This document shows, piece after piece, positions 1-21,034 of a stretch of 64,000 bases of DNA; position 1 is the stretch's first letter, and every line of letters starts with the position of its first letter. Under the pieces are notes generated by a model that saw only the letters and a program-made list of their open reading frames with translations, made no database searches and was not told the origin of the DNA. This stretch comes from Minisyncoccota bacterium. Lineage in GTDB: Bacteria > Patescibacteriota > Minisyncoccia > Phycocordibacterales > GWA1-40-21. The stretch is from NCBI GenBank assembly GCA_041674925.1, contig JBAYUW010000003.1, positions 2,042-66,041 of the forward strand, written 5' to 3'. The position numbers and the translations under genes are program-made.

Positions 1-1323
1 GATTTCTTGAAAAATCCGAAAAAGTTTTTGGATATTGGTGCGCGTATTCCCAAAGGTATTTTGTTGATGGGAGCTCCAGGTACTGGTAAAACTTTGCTAG
101 CGCGAGCGGTGGCCGGTGAAGCCGGTGTCGCTTTCTTTTCTATTTCTGGTTCGGAATTTGTGGAAATGTTTGTCGGTGTCGGTGCTTCACGTGTCCGCGA
201 TCTATTTAAAATGGCCAAGCAAATGGCCCCAGCGATTATTTTCGTGGATGAGATTGATGCCGTCGGTCGCGTGCGCGGCGCTGGTATGGGTGGGGGAAAT
301 GATGAGCGCGAACAAACCTTAAACCAAATTTTAGTGGAGATGGATGGCTTCGAGCCAAATGAAAAAGTGATTGTCATGGCGGCGACCAACCGTCCCGATG
401 TCTTGGATCCCGCTTTACTGCGACCAGGGCGTTTTGATCGCCGAGTGGTGATTGATTTGCCAGATCGCGCCGATCGTGAGGCGATTTTGCAAGTGCATTC
501 AAAAGAGAAACCATTTGCGGAAGACGTGAATCTGAAAGTGATTGCTGAGAGAACACCTGGTTTTTCTGGTGCTGATCTTTATTCCTTAATGAACGAAGGG
601 GCGATTTTGGCGGCGCGTGAAAATCGCACTAAAGTTTCTCAATTCGATTTGATCCGCTCGATTGAAAAAGTCATGATGGGTCCGGAAAGAAAATCTCACT
701 TATTATCTAAAAAAGAAAAAGAATTGACTGCCTATCATGAGGCCGGCCATGCGATTGTTTCTTCGGTTTTGCCTTATGCTGATCCAGTTCATAAAATTTC
801 TATCATTTCTCGCGGTCGTGCCGCTGGTTATACTTTGAAACTTCCGTTAGAAGACAGGAAAATGCAAAGTAAAAAAGAATTTTTGGACGATATCACGGTC
901 GCGCTCGCTGGTTATGCCACCGAAAAACTAATTCTCGATGATGTGACAACTGGTCCATCAAATGATTTGCAAGTTTCGACCGCGCTCGCTCGTGAGATGG
1001 TCACTAAATATGGTATGTCCGACAAAATTGGGGCAATGGCCTTGGAAGGAACTGGCGGTAATACTTTATTTGGTTCCCGTGGAGTGGGTGAAAATGAGTA
1101 TTCAGAAAAAGTCAGTGCTTTGATTGATAGTGAAGTCTCAGAAATTATGACAGCTTCGATGACTAAAGCTAAAGAAATTATCAATGCTCATCGTAAGGCT
1201 CTGGATGCCGTCGCTAAAAGATTAGTCGAAGTTGAAACCATCGAACGCGAAGAATACGAAAAAATTATTATCGCTCATGGCATTATGCCAAAGCAGAAGA
1301 AGGACATTGAGCATCAGGGATAA
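1..1323 (+). CDS. ftsH: ATP-dependent zinc metalloprotease FtsH, C-terminal ~440 aa (5' end cut by window edge)
   Basis: AAA+ Walker [19 protein letters not shown] and Walker [16 protein letters not shown] zinc-binding HEXXH motif in the C-terminal protease domain. The ORF is open to position 1. Confidence 0.9.
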
Positions 1324-1326
1324 AAG

Positions 1327-1399
1327 TGCGTGTGCTAGGACTCGAACCTAGGACCACCGAGGTATAAGCTCGGCGCTCTACCAACTGAGCTACACACGC
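1327..1399 (-). tRNA. tRNA-Ile with anticodon UAU (TAT)
   Basis: 73-nt cloverleaf on the minus strand. Acceptor GCGTGTG/CACACGC, D-arm GCTC-AGTTGGTA-GAGC. Anticodon stem CCGAG/CTCGG with loop CTTATAC, giving anticodon TAT. T-arm CTAGG-TTCGAGT-CCTAG, discriminator A, no encoded CCA. Confidence 0.7.
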
Positions 1400-1486
1400 A
1401 TCCGTCTCCGAATCTTATCTCAAAAAACCACTTTTCGCAATTAAATTTAACCCCTCGATTTATCCACACCCAAGTCAAATTTTTCG

Positions 1487-1924
1487 GTGTTTTTGTGTGT
1501 TAGGATACAAGGCGTGAAAAAAGATTTTGATAAATGGAATGAATTAAAGAAAAGGACCGACAATCTAAATGTGATAACTAGGATTCGTGAGGGTGAAGTT
1601 CGTTGGTGTATATTTGGTATAAACATTGGCAACGAGATTATTGGAAAAGGAGAATTTTTTAGACGACCAGCGTTGATTCTAAAAAAGTATTCAGGGGACG
1701 TGTTTTTGGGGTTACCGCTAACGACTCGAGAACACTATGGAGATTGGTATTATGAAATCATAGACAGAGATCTTTCTAGATTTGTCATCCTTAACCAAGG
1801 TAGGATCTTGGACAGAAAGAGGCTTGCCCAAAAGATATTTGAGATATCAGAAATTGAGCTTGAGAATGTCAAAATAGCATATTGTTCATTAATAATGAAA
1901 CAACATACACAACCTATGGTATAA
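1487..1924 (+). CDS. MazF/PemK/EndoA-family endoribonuclease (toxin) homologue, no cognate antitoxin gene adjacent
   Basis: The translated ORF aligns to Bacillus EndoA/MazF: GEVRWCIFGINIGNEIIGKGEFFRRPALIL parallels [25 protein letters not shown], and the C-terminal ILNQGRILDRKRLAQKI parallels LLEQIRTIDKQRLTDKI. GTG start. A paralogue lies at 37572-37970. Confidence 0.6.
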   Translation: MFLCVRIQGVKKDFDKWNELKKRTDNLNVITRIREGEVRWCIFGINIGNEIIGKGEFFRRPALILKKYSGDVFLGLPLTTREHYGDWYYEIIDRDLSRFVILNQGRILDRKRLAQKIFEISEIELENVKIAYCSLIMKQHTQPMV

Positions 1925-1932
1925 ATCACAAA

Positions 1933-1952
1933 GACCGTCCTACGACGGTCCT
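1933..1952 (+). terminator. hairpin GACCGTC-CTAC-GACGGTC after the mazF-like gene, weak U-tract
   Basis: Perfect 7-bp stem with a 4-nt loop 9 nt after the stop codon, but only two T follow. A weak candidate. Confidence 0.3.
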
Positions 1953-2100
1953 TGAATGGGTAACCCCAACTTGTATTTAAAGTGTAGCAGATCATAGGTG
2001 ATAGTCAAGTCAATAAAAAGTGGATAAATCGCCTCCCTTTTCACCCCTTGCATTTTTACTGGAGGGGGTAAAATGAGGGTATTATTAATTAATTTTAAAT

Positions 2101-2553
2101 ATGAAAAATCCTGAAAATAAAAATGAAGAGATGGTAAGTATTGATACAAGGTTAGCTGATGGGGTAAAATTATTAACTCAAACGACTAAACCCTTGTGGG
2201 ATGAAGTTAATGGTGTAAATATGTCTGAACAGAAAAAACGGCTATACAAAAGAATTTTTGCAGAGGCTTCTTTAGGTTTGAGTGAGGTAACCATGCATTT
2301 TCCATTTCCTGTGGAAAAAATAGAAAAGTATACAATGGAACACGAGAATGATGTCTTGGTTCAAGATGAAAAAGATTTTACTTACAGGATTCAGATTGAT
2401 CAGAATCAGGAATTTTATGAAGGTTTACTTGAATTAAAAGAGCTGGGTCAATTTAAAGTAGAGTTCATCAGTAAGAAGGGAGAATCCTCCTCTTCGTCTG
2501 ACGGTTGGGCAGTAAAAGAATCAGAATATTTAGTCGCAAGAATTAGCTGGTAG
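2101..2553 (+). CDS. hypothetical protein
   Basis: 150-aa ORF with a coding-like composition and no recognisable motifs. Confidence 0.4.
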   Translation: MKNPENKNEEMVSIDTRLADGVKLLTQTTKPLWDEVNGVNMSEQKKRLYKRIFAEASLGLSEVTMHFPFPVEKIEKYTMEHENDVLVQDEKDFTYRIQIDQNQEFYEGLLELKELGQFKVEFISKKGESSSSSDGWAVKESEYLVARISW

Positions 2554-2566
2554 TTCTCAAGATCTT

Positions 2567-4732
2567 CTACTCCAAATGCAACTCATCTTGTTTACGCAAG
2601 GTGAGTTTGGTGTTTAGGAGGGGATATTTGGTGAGGGTTTCGTCTTGAGAAAGAAGATACTCGGCTTCGGCGCGGGCAGCTTCGACCATTTTAATATTTT
2701 TGAGAGCTTCCATGCCAATGTCGGAAATACCCCATTGTTTGTTACCAGATAATTCGCCGGGGCCGCGCAGTTTTAAATCAAATTCTGCTAATTCAAAACC
2801 ATTACTAGAATTTTTAAAAGCTTTCAGGCGCTCGACAGTTTTTTGGGTTTTAGAATCGGCAAAAACATAGCAGTAAGCTTGATCGTTACTTCGAATCACT
2901 CGTCCGCGAAGTTGGTGGAGTTGAGCTAAACCAAATCTTTCCGCTCCTTCAATAATAATCACAGTCGCGTTTGGCACATTTACACCGACCTCGACCACCG
3001 AGGTTGCCACTAAAATTTTAATGTTACCTTTTTTGAACTCTTCCATCACATATTCTTTGTCGTCAGGCGGCATCTTACTGTGCAAGATGCCAATCCGGTC
3101 TTTGTACTCCGGAAAAACATCTCGCTCTAATCTCTCGGCTTCTTCCATCACACTTTTAGCAATTACAGCCTGTTCTTTGGTTGGATCTGGCTCATCGATA
3201 CGTGGACAAATGACATATAATTGTCGCCCAGCTTTTAATTCTTGCTTAATTTTTTCATAAGTATTTTCCCTTTCACCCGGTAAAACTATTTCTGTAATAA
3301 TCGGTTTTCTTCCCGACGGCATTTGATCAAGTAAAGTTAAATCTAGATCGCCATAAATTGTCAGCGCCAGAGTTCGGGGAATAGGCGTGGCGGTCATGGA
3401 TAATAAATGAGGATTAAATTTTTCTTTTTTGGCGAGTTTTTGCCTTTGAGCCGTGCCGAAACGGTGCTGTTCATCAATGATCACATAAGCCAAATGTTTA
3501 AACTTCACATTTTTTTGGATCAAAGCATGAGTACCGATTAAAATCGGAATCTCACCATTTTCCACCCATTTTAAAAGTTGAGGTCGAGAAATATTGGTCC
3601 ATTCTTTGGGATTAGTTTTCGAGGGAAACTTGCGACACTCTTTTCCGGTAATCAAACCGATATTAATATTTAAATAAGTAAAATATTGGATAAAACTTTC
3701 AAAATGTTGTTTGGCTAAAATTTCAGTCGGGGCCATATAAGCGACTTGTAGATGGCCAAAATCTTGTCCTTTCGGTCGAGAAGTGATAACTGAATAAGCT
3801 GTGGTGGCGGCGACGGCGGTTTTACCAGAACCCACATCTCCTTCCAGTAATCGCGACATGGCTTGGCCTTTTTTAAAATCCGACATGATGCTGTTGATTG
3901 CTTTTTGCTGGGCTTCAGTTGCTTGAAAAGGAAATCTTTTTACGAATTGCTCAACTTCGTTGGGAGTCTTTTCAATTACAAAAGCTGGTTCTTTTTGCCA
4001 CACTATTCTGTCCCTTTTTTTCTGAAGTTGTATGAGAAAGACTTCTTCAAAAGCAAATCTTTTGCGGGCCGATAAAGCGTCATCTTGTTTTAATGGCGCG
4101 TGAATCCAGACTAGGGCAGTGGTGAGAGAGGGGAGATTGTATGTCTTCAAAATATAATCAGGAATTGCATCACTTAAATTATCTAAAATTCCACTCTTTA
4201 AAACTTTCTGAATGGCGTGATAAATCCAAAGTGAAGTGATACCGCGACTTTCGGGATAGACGGGATACAAAGAGTGTACCTCGCCATCTTCACCAAACAA
4301 AGAGTCACCGACGCCGATGGGTAATTTGCCGACGGTTTCGATTTTTGGATTCACTAATCCCAGAATATTTTTTCGCTCGGAAACTTTTCCTTCGACGCGT
4401 ACCAAAGCCCCCTCCTGAATCATTTTGGCAATATAGGGTTGATGAAACCAGACGGCTTTAATTTTTCCAGTTTCATCTTCGATATAACCCTCGGCAATCG
4501 GAGTTTTTTTGATAAAAGCTTTACCGGTTTTTAAACCAGAAACTCTTCCAAATATGACGGCGTTTTCACCCATGACCAGACTTCCGATATTTTTCATCTC
4601 CGCCGTGTCACCATAGCGAGTAGGGAAATGATACAGCAAATCCTCGATGGTTTTTAGGCCAATTTTTTTTAGAGCCTTTTTCTGAAGCTCCTGGAGTTTA
4701 AAATGCTGTTCTATTAGATCATGTCTTTGCAC
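2567..4732 (-). CDS. recG: ATP-dependent DNA helicase RecG
   Basis: 721 aa with an N-terminal wedge/OB region. Helicase motifs GDVGSGKTAVA, DEQHRFG, SMTATPIPRTL and QLHQLRGRVIRS. Confidence 0.9.
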   Translation of the reverse strand: MQRHDLIEQHFKLQELQKKALKKIGLKTIEDLLYHFPTRYGDTAEMKNIGSLVMGENAVIFGRVSGLKTGKAFIKKTPIAEGYIEDETGKIKAVWFHQPYIAKMIQEGALVRVEGKVSERKNILGLVNPKIETVGKLPIGVGDSLFGEDGEVHSLYPVYPESRGITSLWIYHAIQKVLKSGILDNLSDAIPDYILKTYNLPSLTTALVWIHAPLKQDDALSARKRFAFEEVFLIQLQKKRDRIVWQKEPAFVIEKTPNEVEQFVKRFPFQATEAQQKAINSIMSDFKKGQAMSRLLEGDVGSGKTAVAATTAYSVITSRPKGQDFGHLQVAYMAPTEILAKQHFESFIQYFTYLNINIGLITGKECRKFPSKTNPKEWTNISRPQLLKWVENGEIPILIGTHALIQKNVKFKHLAYVIIDEQHRFGTAQRQKLAKKEKFNPHLLSMTATPIPRTLALTIYGDLDLTLLDQMPSGRKPIITEIVLPGERENTYEKIKQELKAGRQLYVICPRIDEPDPTKEQAVIAKSVMEEAERLERDVFPEYKDRIGILHSKMPPDDKEYVMEEFKKGNIKILVATSVVEVGVNVPNATVIIIEGAERFGLAQLHQLRGRVIRSNDQAYCYVFADSKTQKTVERLKAFKNSSNGFELAEFDLKLRGPGELSGNKQWGISDIGMEALKNIKMVEAARAEAEYLLSQDETLTKYPLLNTKLTLRKQDELHLE

Positions 4733-4791: not shown

Positions 4792-5283
4792 ATGGAACTA
4801 GCTACTGTAGATATCTTGATTCGTTTGGTAGTCGCTTTATTACTCGGTGTTTTGGTGGGTGTAGAAAGAACTTTGGCGGGCAAAAATGCTGGCATGCGCA
4901 CTTATGCTTTGGTGGCCATGGGCTCGGCTTTGTTTGTTTTGGTGTCGCAAATTGTTTCCTTGCAGTTTATCAATCTGACCAATTTTGATCCTTTGCGCTT
5001 AGCTTCTCAAGTTTTGGTTGGTATCGGTTTTATCGGTGCTGGTTTAGTTTTTCATAACAATAAAGATATGAAGACTTCCGGTCTCACCTCGGCCGCTGGC
5101 CTCTGGGTGTCCGCGGGTATTGGTATGTCGGCGGGTTTTGGTTTGTTTTCACTCGCTATTATCGCCGCTCTGCTTACTTTGTTAATCTTTACTATCCTCT
5201 GGTATGTCGAAAAACTTTTCAAAAAGATTTCCTACAGTGATGAACAAGTCGAGAAAGAGAATTCGGAGAGGTTTCATGAGTAG
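4792..5283 (+). CDS. mgtC: MgtC/SapB-family membrane protein
   Basis: N-terminal LGVLVGVERTLAGKNAGMRTYALVAMGSALF is characteristic of MgtC. Four predicted TM segments. The last 36 nt are repeated downstream at 8650 and 9158. Confidence 0.8.
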   Translation: MELATVDILIRLVVALLLGVLVGVERTLAGKNAGMRTYALVAMGSALFVLVSQIVSLQFINLTNFDPLRLASQVLVGIGFIGAGLVFHNNKDMKTSGLTSAAGLWVSAGIGMSAGFGLFSLAIIAALLTLLIFTILWYVEKLFKKISYSDEQVEKENSERFHE

Positions 5284-5294
5284 GGACAATTGTT
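5248..5294 (+). repeat. direct repeat copy A: 3' end of mgtC (GTCGAGAAAGAGAATTCGGAGAGGTTTCATGAGTAG + GGACAATTG)
   Basis: The same ~36 nt, coding ...VEKENSERFHE-stop, recur at 8650-8697 and (more diverged) 9158-9196. All three are in the same orientation. Confidence 0.8.
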
Positions 5295-6711
5295 ATTTTT
5301 TGTAGATTCGATAGTGATAGCCATAGCAATCTCCTCTAGCGATTAATTTTAAATTGTCAGTTTTTATGAAGGTTTCTCCCCATTCTGATGGGCTAATGTT
5401 TAGAATATACTCATGGTCTTCTAATTGTGGGGTAAGATCGGTATTATAATCATTTACTAGTAAGGTGTCTGTACCAAGAATCTCCCTAAGTCTTTTATGA
5501 GCTCCGGTAATCGATCTGTGGTTTGGCACCCATTCATTTAACCATCGACTGGAGACCAAAATTGTATCAAGTTTTTGGTATTTTGAGATTACCGTTTTTA
5601 CGCTCTGTAAACACATTTGTTCTTTTATCTGATCGCTATTTTTTTTATTAATATCTGTAATATCTGACATACCAAGTAGTACTAATGTAGCGAAAACTAG
5701 TAATAGATATGCCGGGCGATATTGAGAGGAAATTCTTTCAAACATAAGACAAATGCATAAAATGAATATTGGATATACGATGAAAAAATATCGCCAAGCG
5801 AACAGGGGTGAAATTAAAGTGATGATTGAAGGTAGGACGAAACAGATAACTAAACCAATAATAATAATTTCTTCAACCATATACGTCTCACCCCCGCAAT
5901 TTTTTTGGCAAAAGTGATTGATGATAAAATATATAAAAAGAATTAAAAATGGGATCACGAGAATATCGTTAGATGACAGGGCGGCAAAGGTTGAGTAGAT
6001 GTCGCTAAGTTTTGTTGGGGGCATCCAATTACCATACGACGTACCATTCATTTTTCTCAAAATTTGTACACCAATAAACAACCAAACCGGCAAGGCCCCG
6101 ACCAGAATTATCAAATGATCTCGAATCGTATTTCTTAAATCGATTATCTTCTTTCTATATCTATATAAAATAACAACGTTAAAAAACAATAAAAAAACCC
6201 CAAAGATATGCGTGTAAAGAATACCCAAGTTTACAAAGATATATCCGAGGCGGGAGTATTTTTTCTTTTTAAATAGAAGACTAAATAGAAAATATAATGA
6301 TGCAGAAGCAAGAAGAAATAACAACGAGTACATCCTGGCGATTTGTGAGTAAGATACGTGAAAGATTGATAGGGAGGTGATCGCTGTACCAAGTATGGTA
6401 ATTCTCTTGTTAAAAAAAGTCATGCAGAATTTAGCGAAAATTATTATTCCCAAGAGTCCGAACAAGACGGAGAGAAGTCTAAGATTAATTTCTGACATTC
6501 CAAACAATAAGGTAAAAATTTTAGCAAGATAGAAATACAAAGGGACGTGTACATCGTTGTACATCTGAATGTTCATATCGACGAAGCCACGATTTACTAT
6601 ATCGTACGTATACCACTCATCATGGGAAAAGGGAAAATTTAAGGGATATATTCTAAGAAAAATCCCAAACGCTAAAATAATAATGATTGCGATATTGTAG
6701 ATCTTCTTCAT
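5293..6711 (-). CDS. GT-C fold membrane glycosyltransferase (ArnT/PMT, GT39/GT83-like)
   Basis: 472 aa with more than 10 TM segments. The N-terminal region (YPLNFPFSHDEWYTYDI ... PLYFYLAKIFTLLFG) is typical of dolichyl/undecaprenyl-phosphate-sugar-dependent transferases. Confidence 0.6.
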   Translation of the reverse strand: MKKIYNIAIIIILAFGIFLRIYPLNFPFSHDEWYTYDIVNRGFVDMNIQMYNDVHVPLYFYLAKIFTLLFGMSEINLRLLSVLFGLLGIIIFAKFCMTFFNKRITILGTAITSLSIFHVSYSQIARMYSLLFLLASASLYFLFSLLFKKKKYSRLGYIFVNLGILYTHIFGVFLLFFNVVILYRYRKKIIDLRNTIRDHLIILVGALPVWLFIGVQILRKMNGTSYGNWMPPTKLSDIYSTFAALSSNDILVIPFLILFIYFIINHFCQKNCGGETYMVEEIIIIGLVICFVLPSIITLISPLFAWRYFFIVYPIFILCICLMFERISSQYRPAYLLLVFATLVLLGMSDITDINKKNSDQIKEQMCLQSVKTVISKYQKLDTILVSSRWLNEWVPNHRSITGAHKRLREILGTDTLLVNDYNTDLTPQLEDHEYILNISPSEWGETFIKTDNLKLIARGDCYGYHYRIYKK

Positions 6712-7916
6712 TAATATTTATTTCTTAAAAAATTATACTGAATCAGAATAAAATCCCACAAAGTCAGCAAGGTGTCTCGTACGGGCCTAAGACTCGAGAT
6801 CCGATCATTTTTCCATCTAATTGGTACTTCTATTATTTTATAATCGTAGAATTGGGAAATTGCCAAAAACTCTAAGTCAAAACCAAATCTTTTAATTTGT
6901 TGCTTACTAAAAATCTCTTTGGCGACCTGGCTTTTTATGAGTTTGAAACCACACTGTGTGTCTTTTATGTCTCTAATTAAGGTTGAACTTAATATTGCGC
7001 CAACCTTGCTTATGATTTTACGATACAAAGGTTGTCTTAATTCTACTACACTACTTTTTAATTTTCTTGAGCCAATGACGACATCATATTCGTCGAAATA
7101 CTTATTAAGATTTATTAATTCCTCAATAGGGGTTGAACCATCGGCATCCATAAATAAAATATATTTGCCCGAGCTATTTTCTATTCCTATTTTGATAGCA
7201 CTACCCTTGCCCTGATTTTTTTTCAGATCTATTTTTTTAAAAGTTGCATAACTTAAAGTTATTTCGTCTATTATCTTTGAGGTATTGTCGTTCGAACCAT
7301 CATTGACGACAATAATCTCACACCTCGAATTGAAGTATCTTAAAAAATTATCAGTCAACCCTAAGGTCTTAGTAATTCGATTTTCCTCATTATAAGCTGG
7401 GATCACGATTGTATAATCAAAATCGTATCTGACTTCCGGAAACTCTTTTTTTGCAAAAACTTTGAAGGTCCAGTGTTTATTGCCCCAATAATTCCAATAT
7501 AAGACAAGTAGCGAGGTGATGATTTTGGCTAATATATACCAGAGGCCAAGTATCAAGTGCAGGAGAGACATCAACAGAAGCGTTATGTTCAATCCTATAA
7601 ATGAAATAATTAGGAATTTTAGGTATTGATGGTGATAGGCTTTATTTTTGTTGTTAAAGGTCCAAATCTTATTCCAGACAAAATTATTCGTCGCTGCTAA
7701 AATAAAGGATATCGTTGCCGCCAAAATAACTTGTAAATGAAAATATTCGACTAAAATGAATAAAAATGCTAAATCAATAAGGGTGCCTGTTACACCCACC
7801 AACCCATAACGAATCATTCTCTGAAATTCTCTCATATCCGTACAATAATACCATTTTTGTACGAAATTCGTCCAAGAAAATATAACCATTGTTTCATTAT
7901 TATTAGCATGATACAA
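6711..7916 (-). CDS. GtrA-like domain fused to a family-2 glycosyltransferase (polyprenol-phosphate glycosyltransferase)
   Basis: N-terminal 4-TM GtrA-like segment (LVGVTGTLIDLAFLFILVEYF). The GT2 catalytic core follows: IVIPAYNEE, the VNDGSNDNT D-x-D region and DADGS. Confidence 0.75.
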   Translation of the reverse strand: MYHANNNETMVIFSWTNFVQKWYYCTDMREFQRMIRYGLVGVTGTLIDLAFLFILVEYFHLQVILAATISFILAATNNFVWNKIWTFNNKNKAYHHQYLKFLIISFIGLNITLLLMSLLHLILGLWYILAKIITSLLVLYWNYWGNKHWTFKVFAKKEFPEVRYDFDYTIVIPAYNEENRITKTLGLTDNFLRYFNSRCEIIVVNDGSNDNTSKIIDEITLSYATFKKIDLKKNQGKGSAIKIGIENSSGKYILFMDADGSTPIEELINLNKYFDEYDVVIGSRKLKSSVVELRQPLYRKIISKVGAILSSTLIRDIKDTQCGFKLIKSQVAKEIFSKQQIKRFGFDLEFLAISQFYDYKIIEVPIRWKNDRISSLRPVRDTLLTLWDFILIQYNFLRNKY

Positions 7917-7947
7917 TATGTTTATTATTTATTAACAAAATCTAATA

Positions 7948-8577
7948 ATGACCAGAGCTCAAAAATATATTTTACCTACAGTTTTACTGATCACGATTGC
8001 AGTCGGCGTATCGCTTTCTATTATAAGAAGTGAAAATTTTAATGATGCTGTTGATAATTTGGGTGCGGCGGTTGTTTCAAGTATGGGTTCAAGTAGCAGT
8101 AGTAGTGGGCCATGTTCTGGTGGCCGACCCTGTTGCGGCGGTAGGCCGTACTCTGGTTTCGAACGTTGTTGCAATGGCGTAATATACGATAGTGAATCTT
8201 GGCAGGGTATTAATCCAGATGGCAGTATCAGTGACCATGACCGAGTTTGTTGTGGTGGTAGGGTTGTGGTAGTTGGGAATGATAGTCGCTGGGTAGGTAC
8301 TATATGTTGTCAAAATATCAATACTGTTAAGACTTATAATCGTCGTCATTGGGACTGTAGCTCCACGGGGATATGCCTACTAAATGAGACCAGGGCTTGT
8401 GGTGGTTGCGCAAATCAGCCTAATCCACTAGAGGCACCTTATTGTATTCAGTTGAGTAATGCAGCATATATGGTTCAGCGAACATGGAATAACCAGACCT
8501 GCGCTTATAATAACCCACAATGGACTTCTTGTGGTGGTGGTGCAAGGTGTAATAGTACTGGGACAGCTTGTCAGTAA
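7948..8577 (+). CDS. cysteine-rich secreted or membrane-anchored protein of unknown function
   Basis: An N-terminal hydrophobic anchor/signal, a Ser run, then about 18 Cys in about 150 aa including four CC doublets (PCCGG, RCCNG, VCCGG, ICCQN). Confidence 0.55.
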   Translation: MTRAQKYILPTVLLITIAVGVSLSIIRSENFNDAVDNLGAAVVSSMGSSSSSSGPCSGGRPCCGGRPYSGFERCCNGVIYDSESWQGINPDGSISDHDRVCCGGRVVVVGNDSRWVGTICCQNINTVKTYNRRHWDCSSTGICLLNETRACGGCANQPNPLEAPYCIQLSNAAYMVQRTWNNQTCAYNNPQWTSCGGGARCNSTGTACQ

Positions 8578-8649
8578 TAGTCGATAGTCATATTTACGAT
8601 TGTCGTTAATACTCATTAATTTCCAAATGATTTCTACAGCGATGGAAAA

Positions 8650-8697
8650 GTGGAGAAAGAAAATTCGGAGAGGTTTCATGAATAAGGTCTAATTGTT
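8650..8697 (+). repeat. direct repeat copy B of the mgtC 3' end
   Basis: GTGGAGAAAGAAAATTCGGAGAGGTTTCATGAATAA + GGTCTAATTG. The ENSERFHE-stop reading frame is kept. Confidence 0.8.
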
Positions 8698-8699
8698 TT

Positions 8700-9104
8700 A
8701 TGTTACTAATTAAAACTTTTCTTAAAACTGATTCTTATGGTGGAATTGGGTTGTTTGCCAATGAAAATATTCCGAAAGATAAGCTCGTCTGGGAATGGAA
8801 TGATTTGGTAGATAAAATGTTTACGCCAGAAGAGTTTGATAAATTTCCACCACCATTTCAAGACTTTATCAAAAGACACGGTTATTCTCCAGCGGAAGAA
8901 ATTTTTGGCAAAAAGATGATCTGCATTAATTTAGACGACGCAAGATTTTTTAATCATCCTGATGATCCGAATACAACAGAGATTAAAGATGGTGTGATTA
9001 TTGCCAATCGGGACATTAAAAAGGGTGAAGAAATAACTTGTGATTATCGTCTGATTGATAATGACAATGAATTTTGTGGGAATTTTTTAACTAAAAGTAT
9101 TTAG
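8700..9104 (+). CDS. SET-domain protein (putative protein lysine methyltransferase)
   Basis: GIGLFA (GxG SAM pocket), RFFNHPDDPN (NHxCxPN-like) and GEEITCDY (ELxxDY catalytic Tyr), in canonical SET order. Confidence 0.7.
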   Translation: MLLIKTFLKTDSYGGIGLFANENIPKDKLVWEWNDLVDKMFTPEEFDKFPPPFQDFIKRHGYSPAEEIFGKKMICINLDDARFFNHPDDPNTTEIKDGVIIANRDIKKGEEITCDYRLIDNDNEFCGNFLTKSI

Positions 9105-9157
9105 CCTTTTTATACTTGTGCTGGCTGGAATTCGTCTTTCGACTAAAATTTGTTTAT

Positions 9158-9196
9158 CAGAAAACTCGGAACGGTTTCATGAGTAGGGGATGATTG
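9158..9196 (+). repeat. direct repeat copy C of the mgtC 3' end (diverged)
   Basis: CAGAAAACTCGGAACGGTTTCATGAGTAG + GGGATGATTG. Still encodes ENSERFHE-stop. Confidence 0.65.
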
Positions 9197-9257
9197 ATAA
9201 CACCAGCTAAAGTTATAGTATAACTTTAGGCTTTGTTATTTGAGAAAGGAGCGTCCC

Positions 9258-9803
9258 ATGTTTGAAACGCTTAAGGTTGTAGTTGAAGATGCAATCTTGC
9301 CCCACGACAAAGATTTGATCTTGTCTGTGGTGGAAAGTATCGTGGAGTTAATAAACCAGAATCCATTCACTAGTCGAATCTGGTTTTTGCTTCTGAATCC
9401 GGAAATAGCTCAGAAGCCAGTAATAAATAAGAAGTCCGAACTTAAACCACCAAATTGTATCGGCACAGCACTCTTTGTCGCTGGGCTTGATCAGATTGGT
9501 TATCCTTACCATGCCTATGATGATGAACTTGGTGATCACACGGGGGAATTCGATCCAGAAAACTTGCAGGGGCGTTTGTTCTCGAGTTATCGTCGGTATC
9601 CAGAAAGGATGATCCCCGGGGCATTCTGCTTCTCGTACTCAGAGGACGCAGACTGTCACGCTGGTATATACCTCGGACAGGTAAAGGGCGAGCATATCTT
9701 ATTTGCTCAACATGGAGCTGGCGGAGTTTTTTGTGTTGAAACACTAAGTGGAAATTACACAAGTCCCGATTTCTACATTCCTGCAACGTTGCAAAATCGA
9801 TAA
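9258..9803 (+). CDS. hypothetical protein with conserved Cys...His spacing
   Basis: ATG at 9258 within the 9240 ORF. No motif I can name with confidence; a Cys/His hydrolase is only a possibility. Confidence 0.4.
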   Translation: MFETLKVVVEDAILPHDKDLILSVVESIVELINQNPFTSRIWFLLLNPEIAQKPVINKKSELKPPNCIGTALFVAGLDQIGYPYHAYDDELGDHTGEFDPENLQGRLFSSYRRYPERMIPGAFCFSYSEDADCHAGIYLGQVKGEHILFAQHGAGGVFCVETLSGNYTSPDFYIPATLQNR

Positions 9804-9897
9804 TCTGGTGTCGTCCAGACATTGGAAGAAAGGCATTACGCTTCGCGTTGTGCCTTTTTTGTTTGAAAGAAATGGAGGGCTGGCTGGAATTTCTTCT

Positions 9898-10158
9898 TTA
9901 AGCCAAATGTTTATTCAAAAACGCCCGACCGGATCCGGATTTTAAATATTTTTCAAAATTAAAGGCCTTGTATTTATTTGCAAATGCAGTATAAGAGACC
10001 AGTATCATTGGTCGACGATTAATCGTGGCTGGCACGTATCCTTTATTATGCCGATTTAGCCTCTCTCTTAAATCTTCGGTGCAACCCGTATAGGGTTTCC
10101 CATCTACACACTTTAATATATAAACATAATACATAACCGCCATTTTAGTGGCGATCAA
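9898..10158 (-). CDS. GIY-YIG nuclease superfamily protein (UPF0213/YhbQ-like)
   Basis: YYVYILKCVDGKPYTGCTEDLRERLNRHN matches the GIY-(x10)-YIG core plus the conserved Arg and Asn. TTG start. Confidence 0.75.
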   Translation of the reverse strand: MIATKMAVMYYVYILKCVDGKPYTGCTEDLRERLNRHNKGYVPATINRRPMILVSYTAFANKYKAFNFEKYLKSGSGRAFLNKHLA

Positions 10159-10276
10159 GTCTAGAAAAATATCGAGGGGATGTCAACTGTGGATAAGTTG
10201 ACCGGCAAGTCTCTCCTTCGCGACGATCTACTGGCGGACATTGTCCGCCGTAGCTCGTCGCTTCGGCGAGCGAAGG

Positions 10277-10363
10277 CGGAGCCGGCTGGATTCGAACCAG
10301 CGAGGGCGATTAAACCCTGCCTCTTTAGCAAAGAGGTACATTAGACCACTCTGACACGGCTCC
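10277..10363 (-). tRNA. tRNA-Ser (anticodon GCU)
   Basis: 87-nt type II tRNA on the minus strand. Acceptor GGAGCCG/CGGCTCC. Anticodon stem CCTCT/AGAGG with loop TTGCTAA (anticodon GCT). Long variable arm CAGGGTTTAATCGCCCTCG. T-arm CTGGTTCGAATCCAG, discriminator G. Confidence 0.8.
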
Positions 10364-12734: not shown

Positions 12735-13859
12735 ATGTCTAATCTTCTTGACTCATTAAAAAATATTTTTCAAAACGATAAGAACAAAAGTGTTTTGGGT
12801 ATTGATATTGGTCCATCATCAATCAAGGTGGTGCAACTAAAGAAAAGAAAGGGACGTGCCATTCTGGAAACTTACGGAGAGCTATCCCTGGGTCCTTATG
12901 CCGGTATCGAAATCGGTCGCTCGACCAGTTTGCCGACCGAAAAAATCGCCGAAGCGGTGATCGATGTTTTACGCGAGTCCAATACTACCACAAATCGTTG
13001 TGGCATTTCCATCCCTATGGGTTCGAGTCTGGTGTCTTTTATAAAATTGCCAAAAGTGGATGATAAACAGTTGGCTCAAATGATTCCTCTTGAGGCCCGT
13101 AAATATATTCCAGTGCCAATCTCCGAGGTCAGCTTGGACTATTTGGTTATTCCTCGCAATGAAAGCACCGCCTCCGAATATCAAAACAGTGAACAAAAAC
13201 CAGAAGAAAAAACCATCGACGTTTTATTGGTCGTGATTCACAATGATGCGATGGAGAAAAATCGCGAGATTACTCGCTTAGCCAAACTTGATACGGCTTT
13301 TTCTGAGATCGAAATCTTTGGTTCGATGCGTTCAGTGCTTGAGCCCGGAACAGCACCCCAGATGATTATCGATTTCGGCTCTAATTCTACTAAAATTTAT
13401 ATTATCGAACGGGGCATCTTGAGGACGTCTCACTTAATTAGTCGTGGTTCTCAAGATATTACTTTGGCGATTTCTAAATCGCTCGGTATTAGCGTTGATG
13501 AAGCAGAAAAAATGAAACGCGAACGCGGCCTTTTAAAGAAAAGTACGGATCAAATGGATATCAATGAAATTACATCTTTAACTCTCGATTATATTTTTTC
13601 AGAAATCGGCCGAGTCTTACTCAATTATCAAAAGAAAACCGAAAGAAATGTCAGCAAGGTCTTCTTGACCGGTGGGGGAGTTTTACTAAAAGGTTTGAAA
13701 GAAAAAGCTGAGTCCAGTTTTAATGTGCCGGTGGAAATGGCTGACCCCTTTTCTAAGGTTGAATTCCCAGCCTTTTTGGAGACTATCCTAAAGCAAGCGG
13801 GTCCGTCTTTCGCGGTGGCAATCGGTCTAGCCTTGCGCCGTCTGCAAGATGTGAATTAA
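12735..13859 (+). CDS. pilM: type IV pilus assembly protein PilM
   Basis: Actin-like ATPase fold. N-terminal VLGIDIGPSSIKVVQL and overall PilM architecture. First gene of the pilus operon. Confidence 0.8.
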   Translation: MSNLLDSLKNIFQNDKNKSVLGIDIGPSSIKVVQLKKRKGRAILETYGELSLGPYAGIEIGRSTSLPTEKIAEAVIDVLRESNTTTNRCGISIPMGSSLVSFIKLPKVDDKQLAQMIPLEARKYIPVPISEVSLDYLVIPRNESTASEYQNSEQKPEEKTIDVLLVVIHNDAMEKNREITRLAKLDTAFSEIEIFGSMRSVLEPGTAPQMIIDFGSNSTKIYIIERGILRTSHLISRGSQDITLAISKSLGISVDEAEKMKRERGLLKKSTDQMDINEITSLTLDYIFSEIGRVLLNYQKKTERNVSKVFLTGGGVLLKGLKEKAESSFNVPVEMADPFSKVEFPAFLETILKQAGPSFAVAIGLALRRLQDVN

Positions 13860-13913
13860 ACTTGCTTAAACTCTGGCTTTTATTTTGCTTTGATATTATA
13901 ATAATAGAAGAAT

Positions 13914-14507
13914 ATGGAAACTAAAATGCAGACATCTTTCATACCGAAAAAACCGATCGTCGAAAGTCGATCCGAAGGTTCTGGTATCAGTCTATTTTTA
14001 CTACTAGCGATTATTATTTTTATTGTCAGTGTCGCCCTGTGTGGTGGGGTGTGGATTTGGCAAAAATCTTTGGTCGGACAAATCGAAAAAGATAAAGCCG
14101 ATCTAGAAGCTGCTCGGGCGTCTTATGAAGAAGGGGCCATCAATGATTTGATTCGTCTCGACAGTCGCATCAATGTTTCAAATGATCTATTAGATCGACA
14201 CATTGCCATTTCGCCGATTTTTGTTTTACTCGAGCAAAATATTCTAAAAAATGTTCAGTTAAAAACAATGAAGTTTAGTCTAGGGGCCAACAATCAAATC
14301 AAACTCGACCTAGCTGGAAATGCCAGAAATTACGATGCTCTATTAAAACAGGCTGATGCTTTGGGTACCAACGACTTGAAAGAGTTTTTATATCAACCGG
14401 TCGTTTCAGATTTTAATCCGACAGAGAATGGTACAATCGCTTTCAATTTTACTGCCTTACTGACACCGAAACTGATTTCTTATCAAGAAAAACTTTCGCC
14501 ACAATAA
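13914..14507 (+). CDS. pilN: PilN-like bitopic membrane protein
   Basis: Single N-terminal TM followed by a coiled-coil/periplasmic domain. In the pilM-N-O position. Confidence 0.5.
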   Translation: METKMQTSFIPKKPIVESRSEGSGISLFLLLAIIIFIVSVALCGGVWIWQKSLVGQIEKDKADLEAARASYEEGAINDLIRLDSRINVSNDLLDRHIAISPIFVLLEQNILKNVQLKTMKFSLGANNQIKLDLAGNARNYDALLKQADALGTNDLKEFLYQPVVSDFNPTENGTIAFNFTALLTPKLISYQEKLSPQ

Positions 14508-14511
14508 AAAT

Positions 14512-15075
14512 ATGAATTTTATTACCCCAATTATTTTAATTATCATTTCGATCGCCGCTTTCTTTGGCTATGTCGATCCTACCTATCGTGGCTCAGATGC
14601 CAACCCAGAGAGGAGAAGTGTTCAGAGTTTACTGGCTGAGGATGCTGAGTATCAAAAAGCTCTGACCGATACTCAATCGATTCGAGAAAATCGTGATCGC
14701 TTACAAAATATTAGTAATAGTTTTGACCCAGTTCAGCTCGAAAAGCTAGAAAAATTATTGCCAAATAATATCGACAATATTAAATTAGTGATGGATATGA
14801 ATCAGATTGCCAATATCCACAACCTGATTTTAAAGAATATTAAATTAGATACCGCTACCAAGGCCGATTCCAGCAAACTTGGCACTGATAATAATCCATA
14901 TGGCACCGTCGGTTTATCTTTCTCAGTGACTGCGTCCTATGATAATTTTCAAAATTTCTTAACTGATTTAGAGAGAAGTTTGCGTTTGGTGGATATCGTC
15001 GATCTTTCGGTGAGTGCCAATGATACAGGCCTCTATGAATTTGCCGTCAGTCTGAAAACTTATTGGCTAAAATAA
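14512..15075 (+). CDS. pilO: PilO-like bitopic membrane protein
   Basis: Single TM plus periplasmic domain, in the operon context. Confidence 0.5.
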   Translation: MNFITPIILIIISIAAFFGYVDPTYRGSDANPERRSVQSLLAEDAEYQKALTDTQSIRENRDRLQNISNSFDPVQLEKLEKLLPNNIDNIKLVMDMNQIANIHNLILKNIKLDTATKADSSKLGTDNNPYGTVGLSFSVTASYDNFQNFLTDLERSLRLVDIVDLSVSANDTGLYEFAVSLKTYWLK

Positions 15076-15416
15076 ATTTTATGACCCAAAAAATTAAACA
15101 AATAATTATCGCCGTCATCGTGATTATCGTAGCTTTTGTCGGCTTCAAGATGTTTTTCGGTAATAGTTCTGATGAGGCGCTGGTGGAGGATAAAGCTTCT
15201 TCTGCCCAATTCGTCGATGGTCAAGCGATTTTGTTTTTGCTCGGTAAATTAAATCAAGTCACTCTAGATACTTCAATTTTTACCAGTAGTGTTTTTACTA
15301 GTCTAGAAAGTTTTGAACGACCAGTAGAAGATCAAGCCATCAGTCGAAACAATCCCTTTGCTCCAATTGGGGTTGAAAATCAGGTTGTCAAAACTGCAAC
15401 CAGCACCACGCGATAA
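15063..15416 (+). CDS. small membrane-anchored protein (PilP-like position)
   Basis: 117 aa with an N-terminal TM, overlapping the pilO stop. Assigned by position only. Confidence 0.35.
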   Translation: MAKINFMTQKIKQIIIAVIVIIVAFVGFKMFFGNSSDEALVEDKASSAQFVDGQAILFLLGKLNQVTLDTSIFTSSVFTSLESFERPVEDQAISRNNPFAPIGVENQVVKTATSTTR

Positions 15417-15424
15417 AATTTAAT

Positions 15425-17164
15425 ATGAGCATATTAGACATCTTAGCCCAAAAAGACATAATCAAGAAAGGCGATGTGGCAAGAATCAAAACCGAGGCTG
15501 AATCAGCCGGTGTGCCAGTCGAACAGATCTTGATGAAAAAAGGCATCAATGAGGATGCTGTTTTGGATGCCAAGGGTCAATATTATAATATTCCCACTAG
15601 AAATCTGGAGGGTATGGAAATTCCTTTTGCGGTTTTAAAAAATATTTCTGAAGACTCAGCTCGTCATTACAGTTTTGTGCCGATTGCTGTGAAAGATGGC
15701 TTGCTTGAAGTGGGAATAGTAGATCCAGAAAATATTGAAGCTCGTGATGCCTTAAACTTTATTTCCAGCAAAGTCGGCTTACCATTCAAGTTATATCTGA
15801 TTTCCATGTCAGATTTCGAAAAAGTTTTAGATGATTATAAAGGCCTTTCCGGTGAAGTCACCAAAGCCTTGTCGGAGTTGGAGACTGAATTATCTGAAGA
15901 TGTCGATGGGGTAGAGATGAGTACGGCGGCGTCTCAAGAGGATCCACTCGAAACTAAAATCGTTGAAGATGCGCCAGTGACAAAAATCGTGGCGACGATG
16001 TTGCGATATGCGACCGAGGGCAACGCTTCGGATATTCACGTCGAACACATGAAAGACAAAGTCCGGGTCCGTTTTCGCGTCGATGGAGTTTTAAATACTA
16101 GTTTGCTTTTGCCGGCGACGGTTCATTCGGCGGTGATTGCTCGAATCAAAATTTTGTCCAATATGAAATTGGATGAAAAGAGAAAGCCTCAAGACGGGCG
16201 TTTCTCGGCCAAAATTGATGGTCGCAAAATAGATTTTCGTGTTTCCACCTTCCCAGCTTATTACGGTGAAAAAATCGTGATGAGAATCTTGGATCAGGAA
16301 AAAGGCGTGCAGACACTCGACAAGATTGGCTTATCTGAAACAAACCTTGGTTATATTCGCGATGCTATCACTCGACCTTATGGTATGATTTTGATTTCCG
16401 GTCCGACTGGTTCGGGAAAAACTACGACGATGTATTCTATGCTCGGGGAGATTGATAAAGAGGGATTAAACGTTTTATCTTTGGAAGATCCGATTGAGTA
16501 CAATATTGACGGTGTCTCACAATCACAGATTTTTTCTGATATTGGTTACACTTTTGCCACCGGTTTGCGTACCACTCTTCGTCAAGATCCCGACGTGATC
16601 ATGGTGGGAGAGATTCGTGATAAAGAAACGGCTCAGCTTGCCGTGCAGGCGGCTTTGACTGGTCACTTGGTTTTGGCTACGATTCACACAAATAATTCCG
16701 TCGGTGTTATTCCACGTTTGATTGATATGGGCGTCGATCCATTCTTGATTGCGCCAACTTTGATTTTGACCATGGCTCAGCGTTTGGTCAGAACTTTATA
16801 TACTGGAACTGGTAAAGCTGTGCCGGTGGAAGGTAGCACCAAGGCGATGCTCGATCGACAGTTTGCTGATTTACCGGAAGAGTATAAAAGTAAACTACCA
16901 AAATTTGAAAATATTTATGAACCAGAATCAACCGCCGAGTGTCCAACTGGTACTAAAGGCCGAGTGGCGGTATTTGAGGCTTTTAAAATGAATAAAGAAA
17001 TTGAGAAACTAATTCTGACCAATCCAACCGCTACCGCAATCTTTGAGTCATTACGAAAGAAAGGAATGTTGACAATGAAAGAAGATGCCATTATTAAGGC
17101 CCTAAACAAGCAGATTCCTTTCAGCGAGGTGGACAGTTTGGGCTTGATGGAAGAGGAAGTTTAA
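15425..17164 (+). CDS. pilB: type IV pilus assembly ATPase PilB (GspE family)
   Basis: N-terminal GspII_E N domain. Walker A SGPTGSGKTTT, Asp box, Walker B VIMVGEIRD, His box HLVLATIHTN. Confidence 0.9.
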   Translation: MSILDILAQKDIIKKGDVARIKTEAESAGVPVEQILMKKGINEDAVLDAKGQYYNIPTRNLEGMEIPFAVLKNISEDSARHYSFVPIAVKDGLLEVGIVDPENIEARDALNFISSKVGLPFKLYLISMSDFEKVLDDYKGLSGEVTKALSELETELSEDVDGVEMSTAASQEDPLETKIVEDAPVTKIVATMLRYATEGNASDIHVEHMKDKVRVRFRVDGVLNTSLLLPATVHSAVIARIKILSNMKLDEKRKPQDGRFSAKIDGRKIDFRVSTFPAYYGEKIVMRILDQEKGVQTLDKIGLSETNLGYIRDAITRPYGMILISGPTGSGKTTTMYSMLGEIDKEGLNVLSLEDPIEYNIDGVSQSQIFSDIGYTFATGLRTTLRQDPDVIMVGEIRDKETAQLAVQAALTGHLVLATIHTNNSVGVIPRLIDMGVDPFLIAPTLILTMAQRLVRTLYTGTGKAVPVEGSTKAMLDRQFADLPEEYKSKLPKFENIYEPESTAECPTGTKGRVAVFEAFKMNKEIEKLILTNPTATAIFESLRKKGMLTMKEDAIIKALNKQIPFSEVDSLGLMEEEV

Positions 17165-17203
17165 GTGTGATATAATTAGGGAATATTAAATAAAATAAAA
17201 AAT

Positions 17204-17608
17204 ATGGAAACTAAATTACCAAAGGTTTTGATCGTTGACGATGACAAATTTTTGTTGAATATGTACTCGATAAAATTCAGCAAGAATGGTTTTGAGGTTG
17301 CTTCGGCTGCTTCTGGTGAGGAGGCGCTTGGTAAGATAAAAGGAGGCTATACACCAGACATTATATTACTCGATATTGTGATGCCGGGGATGGATGGTTT
17401 TGGTATTTTAGAGACCCTTCGTAAAGAAAATCTAGCTTCCACCGCTGCGGTGATCATGCTTACTAATCAAGGTCAATTGTCTGATATTGAAAAAGCCAAA
17501 AGTTTTGGAACGAGTGGTTATATTATCAAAGCCACCACGATTCCCTCAGAAGTCGTGGAAGAAGTAATTCGTATTTATAATTTACAAAAAAATACAATAA
17601 CCAAGTAA
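17204..17608 (+). CDS. REC-only response regulator (CheY-like), embedded between pilB and pilT
   Basis: KVLIVDDD, phospho-acceptor region LLDIVMPGMDG, a conserved Thr/Ser and Lys. No output domain. Confidence 0.8.
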   Translation: METKLPKVLIVDDDKFLLNMYSIKFSKNGFEVASAASGEEALGKIKGGYTPDIILLDIVMPGMDGFGILETLRKENLASTAAVIMLTNQGQLSDIEKAKSFGTSGYIIKATTIPSEVVEEVIRIYNLQKNTITK

Positions 17609-17609
17609 T

Positions 17610-19873: not shown

Positions 19874-19895
19874 CGAGGGTTTTCCACACCTTAGA

Positions 19896-19923
19896 TTGTT
19901 GACTATTGTGGATATGATATAAT
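19896..19923 (+). promoter_or_regulatory. candidate sigma70-type promoter with extended -10 (TTGTTG-N16-TGaTATAAT) upstream of the major pilin
   Basis: -35-like TTGTTG at 19896-19901. TG at 19915-16. TATAAT at 19918-19923. 140 nt upstream of the pilin ATG. Confidence 0.4.
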
Positions 19924-20063
19924 AAACAGCATAAGCTAAGAATTTAAATTTAGCTAGCCAAAAGTTTTTGGTCGATCTGTTTTTATCACTCTTACGTAAA
20001 GTGAGAAAAATAGTCAAAAACTAAAGGAATTTATTAGTTTTTAAAAACAAAATTAATTTAATT

Positions 20064-20432: not shown

Positions 20433-20455
20433 TCTTGGTGTAAAAAAACAAAAAA

Positions 20456-21029: not shown

Positions 21030-21034
21030 ATAAT

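Follow-up and report, generated by a model that had tools for sequence, protein, structure and literature searches.

Introduction

How can the 3' end of a single gene come to stand three times in succession, each time followed by different genes, and with no recombinase in sight? This question is raised by the region downstream of mgtC in a metagenome-assembled genome (MAG) of an ultra-small bacterium of the Paceibacteria (Candidatus Paceibacterota, name from NCBI), of which we analysed a stretch of 64,000 nt, referred to as the window in the following. Here, mgtC (4792–5283, forward strand) encodes a protein of 163 amino acids, in which the MgtC domain (residues 12–141; Pfam PF02308, E = 4e-34) is followed by the hydrophilic tail KKISYSDEQVEKENSERFHE; the gene ends in ...YSDEQVEKENSERFHE-TAG. 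Between its stop codon and a tRNA-Ser(GCT) gene (10275–10363, reverse strand), whose 3' end points toward mgtC and which abuts mgtC in relatives, lies an insert of 4,991 bp (5284–10274) that is specific to this lineage. It is arranged in the order tail A–[glycosyltransferase (GT) module]–tail B–[SET gene]–X–GIY3'/tail C–[gene for a 187-amino-acid protein]–X–GIY-YIG gene–tRNA-Ser, where A, B and C are copies of the mgtC end, GIY3' is the 3' end of a GIY-YIG gene and X is a short element described below.

Little is known about how the ultra-small, streamlined Patescibacteria acquire strain-specific surface and accessory functions, and they contain few classical mobile elements. The initial annotation of the locus had taken the repeated gene ends as the product of integrative elements or gene cassettes that insert at a specific 3' site. 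As we describe in the following, the insert is a composite island in a hypervariable hot spot at mgtC/tRNA-Ser(GCT). It resembles an additive island, but its joints are copies of a protein-gene end, and no recombinase was found in the window. Very probably, it arose by the serial stacking of allelic mgtC tails, in at least two and probably three events, all of which preserved mgtC. As to how the joins were made, we lean towards homologous and illegitimate recombination without a dedicated recombinase.

Three copies of the mgtC end

Copy A (5217–5295, forward strand, like the other two) is the functional mgtC tail with its stop codon and ~12 nt beyond. Copy B (8617–8697) is a displaced tail of ~81 nt with a 1-nt deletion, which reads YSDGKVEKENSERFHE-stop; no in-frame start codon can be read in it, and it is a non-coding relic. 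Copy C (9159–9199), likewise displaced, consists of 27 coding nt that read ENSERFHE-stop and a further ~10 nt. A repeat finder reports a three-copy family at 5256, 8658 and 9159 and a longer two-copy family at 5229–5285 and 8631–8687 (57 nt, 86% identity); with one 1-nt indel, the similarity of A and B extends over ~5217–5297 and 8617–8697. The 20-mer AATTCGGAGAGGTTTCATGA, searched with up to three mismatches, occurs only at 5260, 8662 and 9163 in the 64 kb, whereas shuffled sequences lead one to expect 0.02 matches, and when the window is compared with itself by BLAST, the A/B pair is the sole intergenic dispersed repeat. A and C are 85% identical over 27 nt, including an exact 16-mer across the stop codon, GGTTTCATGAGTAGGG, that B does not have.

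These searches place the three copies where the initial annotation had seen them, and its concern that the repeat might be dispersed over unrelated loci proved unfounded, as it is present nowhere else in the window and absent from viral contigs. It is also correct that all three copies translate to ENSERFHE-stop, the deletion in B breaking the frame upstream of YSD. Other details need revision. The repeat recurs as described, but not with a length of 36 nt: A and B share ~81 nt, and C is mgtC-like only over 9159–9199. The proposed common continuation GG(G/T)(A/C)(C/T)AATTG follows A and B, but not C, which reads GGGGATGATTG. Lastly, A and B had been called nearly identical and C older; over the shared 27 nt, A and B differ at three positions, A and C at four and B and C at five, and the proposed age order is not supported.

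The insertion site in related genomes

By scanning GTDB genomes and JGI metagenomes for MgtC, we retrieved eight close relatives of the locus (MgtC 64–96% and RecG 78–97% identical). In seven of them, tRNA-Ser lies within 3–300 bp of mgtC: its 3' end is found 3 nt after the mgtC stop codon in L002, the gene follows at 140–185 nt in L003, L005 and L026, and it adjoins mgtC at ~35–300 nt, but inverted, in L004, L006 and L034. None of the six island genes was found at the mgtC site in the eight relatives' loci. The empty sites suggested as a check on the insertion thus exist, and the comparison of gene content named beforehand as able to refute it turns out to speak for it. Since mgtC is followed by tRNA-Ser at such short distances, the whole of 5284–10274 is lineage-specific, rather than 5293–9104, the extent originally assigned to the inserted cassettes. 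The bracketing of the region by displaced tails stands; its limits have to be widened, as a third cassette (9197–9877), the GIY-YIG gene and tRNA-Ser belong to it as well.

The eighth and closest relative, L025 (89–91% identical at the nucleotide level; RecG 97% at the amino acid level), represents a sister lineage. Its sequence remains collinear with that of the window as far as the mgtC stop codon (5284 in the window, 5677 in L025), beyond which at least 10 kb of unrelated DNA begin. For the genes encoded there, which include a TrmB-like regulator and a uridine kinase–CYTH fusion, homologues were found neither in the window nor in the other relatives' loci examined. In L003, the cargo beside tRNA-Ser encodes MscL, a P-type ATPase and DinB. 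The sequence TTTTTTGTA, common to the flanks of copy A and of the L025 tail, was considered as a remnant of the ancestral sequence; we regard it as a coincidence, because the window copy is coding sequence of a GT-C gene and conserved with that gene's orthologue at another locus (L078, see below).

Several further observations concern the tRNA and the surroundings of mgtC in these relatives. The inverted tRNA-Ser(GCT) genes are located at 6077–6164 in L004, 2950–3037 in L006 and 4561–4650 in L034, as compared with 10275–10363 in the window, and extra partial copies of the tRNA-Ser 3' end in opposite orientation are found in L003 (8330–8345) and L006 (3075–3125); together, they suggest repeated recombination at the tRNA. 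In L002, an element of ~115 nt in the spacer between recG and mgtC (8861–8975) recurs 10 kb downstream (18817–18930; 63 nt at 98% identity), so that its copies bracket mgtC, tRNA-Ser and pilus genes. It is absent from the 60-nt recG–mgtC spacer of the window.

Divergence of the copies

The differences between the copies follow the reading frame. All four differences between A and C in 27 nt are silent (GAG/GAA, AAT/AAC, GAG/GAA, AGG/CGG; P ~6e-4 under random substitution), and between A and B, five of seven in 51 in-frame nt are silent or replace one stop codon by another (P ~0.003), which amounts to nine of 11 for the two comparisons pooled. Likewise, the three changes private to C, polarised against L025, are silent without exception, and C carries neither a replacement nor a frameshift, whereas B carries just one of each. 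Displaced non-coding fragments should change regardless of codon position. As the three copies did not, B and C are formerly working mgtC ends. Together with the empty sites, this supports the earlier proposal of at least two successive insertions at the mgtC 3' end, with the tail displaced each time.

Furthermore, A, B and the L025 tail are mutually equidistant (6–7 differences in 51 nt), and these distances match that of mgtC as a whole, which differs by 13% between the window and L025 (53 of 63 differences silent). The MgtC tail is conserved as protein in seven relatives, with RLH[ED] in place of the RFHE of the window; the Phe codon is common to A, B and C, and every relative has Leu or Met instead. 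A long service as the working end of mgtC is possible for all three copies only if they resided in separate genomes within one species-level cluster. Hence, in the simplest reading of the sequences, B and C would be former functional tails of different mgtC alleles rather than duplicates that decayed in situ, and the three would have been brought together recently.

Element X and the junction at copy C

The joint at copy C has a composite structure. Its upstream part, X(C) (9120–9174, forward strand), starts with a sequence like the 3' end of tRNA-Ser (9120–9136) and continues as the truncated 3' end of a GIY-YIG gene; this tract is homologous to 9879–9932. There, the corresponding fragment X(D) (9879–9896, forward strand), again tRNA-Ser-3'-end-like, lies just downstream of the stop codon of the intact GIY-YIG gene and adjoins its 3' end. 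The core of X, GGCTGGAATT(C/T), occurs in the window only at 9123 and 9882. How closely X resembles the tRNA-Ser 3' end can be seen in L005, where it agrees with the genome's own tRNA at 14 of 15 positions. In local alignments, 9120–9174 matches the X(D)/GIY-YIG tract and 9159–9199 matches the mgtC tail, with an overlap of 16 nt, AGAAAACTCGGAACGG. Copy C is thus a chimera of an X/GIY-YIG 3' end and an mgtC tail, and the overlap marks the junction. The initial annotation had noticed neither X nor this chimeric structure nor the tRNA-Ser gene next to the island.

Since X directly follows the mgtC stop codon in L003, L005 and L026, the SET gene and the 187-amino-acid protein gene both occupy the same interval, between tail and X. 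They have the appearance of two alleles of the same hot spot that a single illegitimate junction has placed in head-to-tail order. A search by tblastn for GIY-YIG remnants in the relatives and elsewhere in the window found none. We also considered a combined attachment site of mgtC tail and tRNA 3' end, given that the two are 3 nt apart in L002; it was rejected, as it predicted an adjacency of tail and X as well as a tail beside the intact tRNA, neither of which is seen.

A model for the stacking of alleles

The serial stacking of allelic tails could have proceeded as follows. The units would originally have belonged to separate but closely related genomes, in each of which one of them immediately followed a functional mgtC: one tail with the GT module, one with the SET gene and X, and one with the 187-amino-acid protein gene, X and the GIY-YIG gene. 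At each step, DNA with the layout 'mgtC ... tail–cargo' would enter and recombine with the resident locus; its left crossover would lie in or upstream of mgtC, and its right end would be joined to a point within the tail already present. From then on, the newly arrived tail would serve as the functional one, and the distal part of the previous tail, 81 nt in the case of B and ~40 nt in that of C, would be shifted downstream. The general recombination machinery may suffice for this, by a homologous anchor on one side and an illegitimate or short-homology join on the other, i.e. homology-facilitated illegitimate recombination (HFIR), which is equivalent to a Campbell-type insertion of a tail-bearing circle. 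A join of this kind accounts for the unequal lengths of B and C, for the lack of common arms beside the copies and for the X/GIY fragment fused to C.

The DNA would have come from relatives, probably by natural transformation. Natural competence has been demonstrated for cultivated bacteria of the Candidate Phyla Radiation (CPR; PMC10633639), and the window contains two sets of type IV pilus or pseudopilin genes (12735–26149 and 49210–56338) with PilM, PilO, two T2SSE ATPases and a PilT-like ATPase, two T2SSF proteins, a prepilin peptidase and several N_methyl proteins. The genes comEC, dprA and recA are not in the 64-kb window. The model predicts that natural mgtC genes exist that end exactly as B or C and are followed by SET–X or by the 187-amino-acid protein gene and X; GARAAYTCNGARMGNTTYCAYGARTAR and B- and C-specific 27-mers can serve as queries.

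A number of points weigh against this account. No single-cargo donor allele (mgtC–SET–X or mgtC–187-amino-acid protein gene–X) was found in public data, although no completed scan was aimed at such alleles, and at the left edge of B, neither microhomology nor an overlap comparable to that of C is evident. The account does not cover the primary event that placed three to four different cargoes 10–15 nt past the mgtC stop codon in different lineages, and its recurrence looks site-specific. Moreover, X is a copy of a tRNA 3' end, the usual footprint of an integrase. Finally, the substitution counts are small (four and seven), and the search for recombinases covered 64 kb and, outside the L001 span, open reading frames (ORFs) of at least 150 amino acids.

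Alternative explanations

The last points lead to site-specific integration, in which small integrative or trans-mobilised cassettes, with an attP that mimics the mgtC tail, would have been inserted by an integrase that is encoded elsewhere or was lost, newer arrivals pushing older ones outward. We hold this to be possible rather than probable. The geometry is that of serial att-site regeneration, A and C share their exact 16-mer just across the stop codon, and three to four different cargoes begin at most ~15 nt from it. Furthermore, tRNA-Ser abuts the site, partial copies of its 3' end (X) occur here as well as in L003, L005, L006 and L026, and L004, L006 and L034 carry the tRNA gene in inverted orientation; a homologue of the 187-amino-acid protein gene also lies within an array punctuated by tRNA-3'-like repeats (L075, see below). 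Serial integrations with partial tRNAs and integrase-less remnants are known for tycheposons (bioRxiv 10.1101/2020.12.28.424599) and additive islands (PMC3698932). In view of the recurrent landing point, the tRNA-derived X and the inverted tRNA-Ser in three relatives, a trans-acting integrase remains a serious rival.

Still, such an enzyme is not in evidence. Pfam scans of the island genes, the L001 gene calls and 31 further window ORFs of at least 150 amino acids yielded no integrase, transposase or phage family, in agreement with what had been noted from the sequence, and no integrase was found in the relatives' variable flanks examined. Since all gaps between island genes measure at most 135 nt in the ORF listing, there is no space for a decayed integrase or pseudogene either. 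The arms beside the copies share no sequence, the homology of the tails differs in length (81 nt as against ~40 nt), a relative carries cassette 1 as an ordinary chromosomal module and, had tail and tRNA formed one combined site, X would have to lie on the other side of the tail at C.

Two special forms of a mobile element were rejected. When folded as single-stranded DNA, neither strand of A, B or C does better than shuffled sequences (z +0.2 to +0.7), and in the absence of attC-like hairpins, a reading of the suggested gene cassettes as integron-type fails. A phage origin of the island is contradicted by the lack of any exact match to the repeat 20-mer among the 2.9 million viral contigs of IMG/VR and by the lack of close viral relatives of the cargo: none were found for the GtrA-GT2 and 187-amino-acid proteins, and those of the SET protein are only 30–36% identical. 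As the island contains no detectable phage or conjugation genes, no integrase and a first cassette that is chromosomal in a relative, we find no positive evidence for an integrative element.

In an alternative that dispenses with foreign alleles, a break or template switch near the mgtC stop codon would have copied distant segments into the locus and duplicated 30–80 nt of flanking sequence, with the copies diverging in place. Such a duplicative capture in situ would be compatible with the orthologue of cassette 1 at another chromosomal locus in a relative, which could reflect an intragenomic move, with a GIY-YIG nuclease gene at the distal end of the array and with the lineage-specific Phe codon in all three copies. 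It predicts neutral decay, however, and the predominance of silent differences, including the three private ones of C, is not what decay would leave. The copies have diverged as far as species do, yet B has acquired one frameshift and one replacement only, and the X/GIY-3' fragment fused to C is left unexplained. We therefore consider this improbable.

The weakest explanation, an assembler that concatenated strain variants or a coincidental similarity, is almost negligible: the sequence does come from a MAG, and both assemblies may derive from the same reads, but the path from A to the GIY-YIG gene (5,098 nt) is identical, with no mismatch, in a contig from a second assembler that used a different k (Logan, SRR6484325), the identical runs between copies (16–20 nt) are too short to collapse a graph at k=31 or k=141, and the 0.02 matches expected argue against chance.

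Comparison with known systems

If allelic tails were stacked as proposed, the closest parallel for the displaced gene end is icd with its prophages e14 and phage 21 (and NC-SV), which insert within the 3' end of a protein-coding gene and displace the original end to the far side. In e14 and phage 21, the incoming DNA reportedly brings a substitute 3' end that preserves the Icd protein and whose differences are mostly silent. The icd site of Escherichia coli is cited in PMC12803456. As at icd, mgtC shows flanking repeats of the target end and an empty site in relatives. Unlike mgtC, icd hosts prophages with their own integrase, excisionase and fixed core, whereas the mgtC island has no recombinase gene in the 64-kb window and no phage gene that we could find, was not seen as an element elsewhere, is built from cargo units of 0.4–3.3 kb and has three serial tails whose homology differs in length.

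Additive islands and tycheposon islands (PMC3698932; bioRxiv 10.1101/2020.12.28.424599) consist of sequential insertions at a tRNA-adjacent site with strain-specific cargo; newcomers drive earlier insertions inward, where these degenerate, and partial tRNAs are found at the joints. The mgtC island resembles both in its tRNA-Ser neighbour with partial 3' copies (9120, 9879), in the partial target copies between cassettes and in the different cargo of L025 and L003. It differs in that the separating repeat is mainly a protein-gene end, that neither integrase elements nor their remnants were found and that one unit is a relocated chromosomal module.

In HFIR, homology anchors the DNA at one end only, and the other end is joined illegitimately (PMC3240628). 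Together with Campbell-type insertion, it would explain why the C junction is chimeric, why the displaced tails vary in length and why a recombinase is lacking, and its expectation that the duplicated segments are alleles that evolved as coding sequence agrees with nine of 11 silent differences at species-level divergence. Unlike the stacks at mgtC, where its action is presumed from the sequence, experimental HFIR usually replaces resident DNA and does not build tandem arrays.

Two further systems share individual traits. Integrons likewise form compact arrays of small units with short repeats between them, the newest expected beside the fixed site, but the mgtC island has neither intI nor attC-like hairpins, the genes of its cassette 1 lie on both strands and its repeats are gene-end copies. 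The gtrABC cluster of Shigella and Salmonella phages always adjoins attP (PMC3636060) and likewise places a GtrA-type flippase, a GT2 enzyme and a polytopic GT-C transferase directly against an attachment junction. In the mgtC island, by contrast, one gene encodes GtrA and GT2 as a fusion, no int–xis pair follows the module, and a relative carries it as a chromosomal module.

Cargo genes of the island

Cassette 1 comprises three genes. The first encodes a GT-C glycosyltransferase (PMT_2) of 472 amino acids (5293–6711, reverse strand), whose stop codon lies 9 nt from that of mgtC; the second encodes a GtrA-like flippase domain fused to GT2 (6711–7916, reverse strand; Pfam PF04138, PF00535); and the third, divergent from this pair, encodes a secreted Cys-rich protein of 209 amino acids (7948–8577, forward strand). 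The Pfam searches bear out the earlier assignments of GT-C, of the GtrA-GT2 fusion and of the SET domain of cassette 2, and a count confirms 18 Cys in the third protein. Orthologues of the three genes form the same module at another locus (L078) of MAG GCA_964567825.1, which is also the source of the empty site L004; they are 69, 75 and 77% identical at the amino acid level (genes 1, 2 and 3), and the gene 3 orthologue, beside the GT pair, is 85% identical at the nucleotide level. This module is flanked by hypothetical genes, near rpsT and G6PD/6PGD. The homology stops at the gene boundaries, with the GT-C C-terminus conserved to the last two codons, and both this identity (69–77%) and the GC content are typical of the backbone. 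Given its orthologue at a chromosomal locus, cassette 1 is a relocated or exchanged chromosomal module rather than the cargo of a mobile element. Low GC content was tried as a mark of foreign DNA and proved uninformative, because the GT genes are equally AT-rich in L078. Beside the GT module in L078 are two Cys-rich secreted paralogues, whose 5' ends and upstream regions are identical over 174 nt (7134–7307 and 8591–8764), which suggests recent gene conversion.

Cassette 2 is a single gene for a SET-domain protein of 134 amino acids (8700–9104, forward strand; Pfam PF00856) with distant homologues only, the closest of which is 45% identical. Cassette 3 (9197–9862, forward strand) consists of a 5' hairpin (9197–9239), a gene for a protein of 181 or 187 amino acids (9240/9258–9803) and a terminator (~9832–9861); its limits of ~9197–9862 follow from the conservation of hairpin and terminator in homologues. 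The protein belongs to a rare family (12 database matches) with an invariant Cys (PNCIGT) and His (WHAGIYLG), and its structural model (predicted local distance difference test, pLDDT, 80) weakly matches MepS, an NlpC/P60 peptidase. Although the proteins of this family are only 60–64% identical, the 5' hairpin or leader and the 3' untranslated region (..TGTCGTCC.GACA.. plus terminator) are conserved, at 9197–9239 and 9805–9862 in the window, 95–143 and 695–760 in L082, and 1–30 and 590–645 in L083. In the homologue contexts L072, L073 and L075, no mobility genes were found and neither mgtC nor tRNA-Ser adjoins; the same two genes are missing beside the homologues in L082 and L083, of which 2.7 kb and 0.9 kb were seen.

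The last island gene encodes a small protein of the GIY-YIG nuclease family (81–86 amino acids; 9898–10158, reverse strand; Pfam PF01541) and is absent from all relatives' loci. The spacer between its start codon and the tRNA-Ser 3' end (10159–10274) is GC-rich and contains at least two hairpins (GGCGGACATTGTCCGCC; GCTCGTCGCTTCGGCGAGC) that have no Rfam match at the gathering threshold. Taken together, the Gtr-like glycosylation module and secreted Cys-rich protein, the SET methyltransferase and the possible NlpC/P60-like hydrolase suggested by the model could affect interactions with hosts or phages.

Generality and implications

Gene-end duplications of this kind are not confined to mgtC. 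On an unrelated CPR contig (L072), the 5' end of a peptidase S51 gene is duplicated perfectly over 48 nt, with the second copy behind a NUDIX gene (1954–2001 and 3937–3984; 2182 and 4165 in L073). The two copies bracket the S51 gene, a homologue of the 187-amino-acid protein gene and the NUDIX gene (1,983 nt), in a duplication of the same type as that of the mgtC end. In L075, three small units, one of which is a homologue of the same gene, lie between ubiA and yceG (1143–3080), separated by four copies of a 24-nt repeat (..GGTTCGAACCCCTCCC..CCTTTGGAGC) that resembles a tRNA 3' end and brackets the homologue. Two of these copies are interrupted after CCCTCCC, and no tRNA gene adjoins.

One could imagine that CPR bacteria in general build and reshuffle accessory arrays without recombinases, with a short copy of a conserved gene end, the mgtC tail in our case, acting as a movable 'att' through which DNA is looped out by homology, taken up and re-inserted in the Campbell manner. 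We regard this as a rather unlikely generalization, for which the S51 copies of L072 and L073 and the repeats of L075 provide partial support. In a variant of the idea, the small GIY-YIG nuclease encoded nearby may make the break that seeds a capture. If the generalization held, cargo could be gained and lost without damage to the anchor gene. From the stacking model itself, it follows that recombination between any two tails at mgtC would delete the intervening cargo and leave mgtC intact. Likewise, general recombination after DNA uptake, if it is the mechanism at work, would offer a simple route for pangenome growth in Patescibacteria. The locus is a dated and readable record: from its three former tails, it can be seen that at least three related lineages contributed cargo, which piled up at one site with no visible recombinase. 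It also offers concrete junctions to look for in reads and in long-read metagenomes.

Other features of the window

A scan of the window against Rfam at gathering thresholds detected six tRNAs and no other RNA family. In a scan for promoters and terminators, promoter-like sites were not above shuffled sequences and terminator-like sites numbered nine against 4.0 ± 2.0; neither bears on the repeat. A block of 1.1 kb (1444–2567) with a PemK-like toxin gene and an ORF of 150 amino acids separates tRNA-Ile(TAT) from recG. A search for direct repeats flanking this indel found none; in L025 the block is absent and its flanks abut. Lastly, an element of 46 nt (CTCCCTCG.ATAAAATTTTGTCGTCACAAAA...GCTGGGCAC) at 30322–30367 on the reverse strand of the window is 87% identical to L003 8247–8292, which lies beside X. 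The window copy is intergenic and contains two units of CCATCGCCCGCGCAA and a terminator hairpin; it may represent a small dispersed element or an RNA motif outside Rfam.

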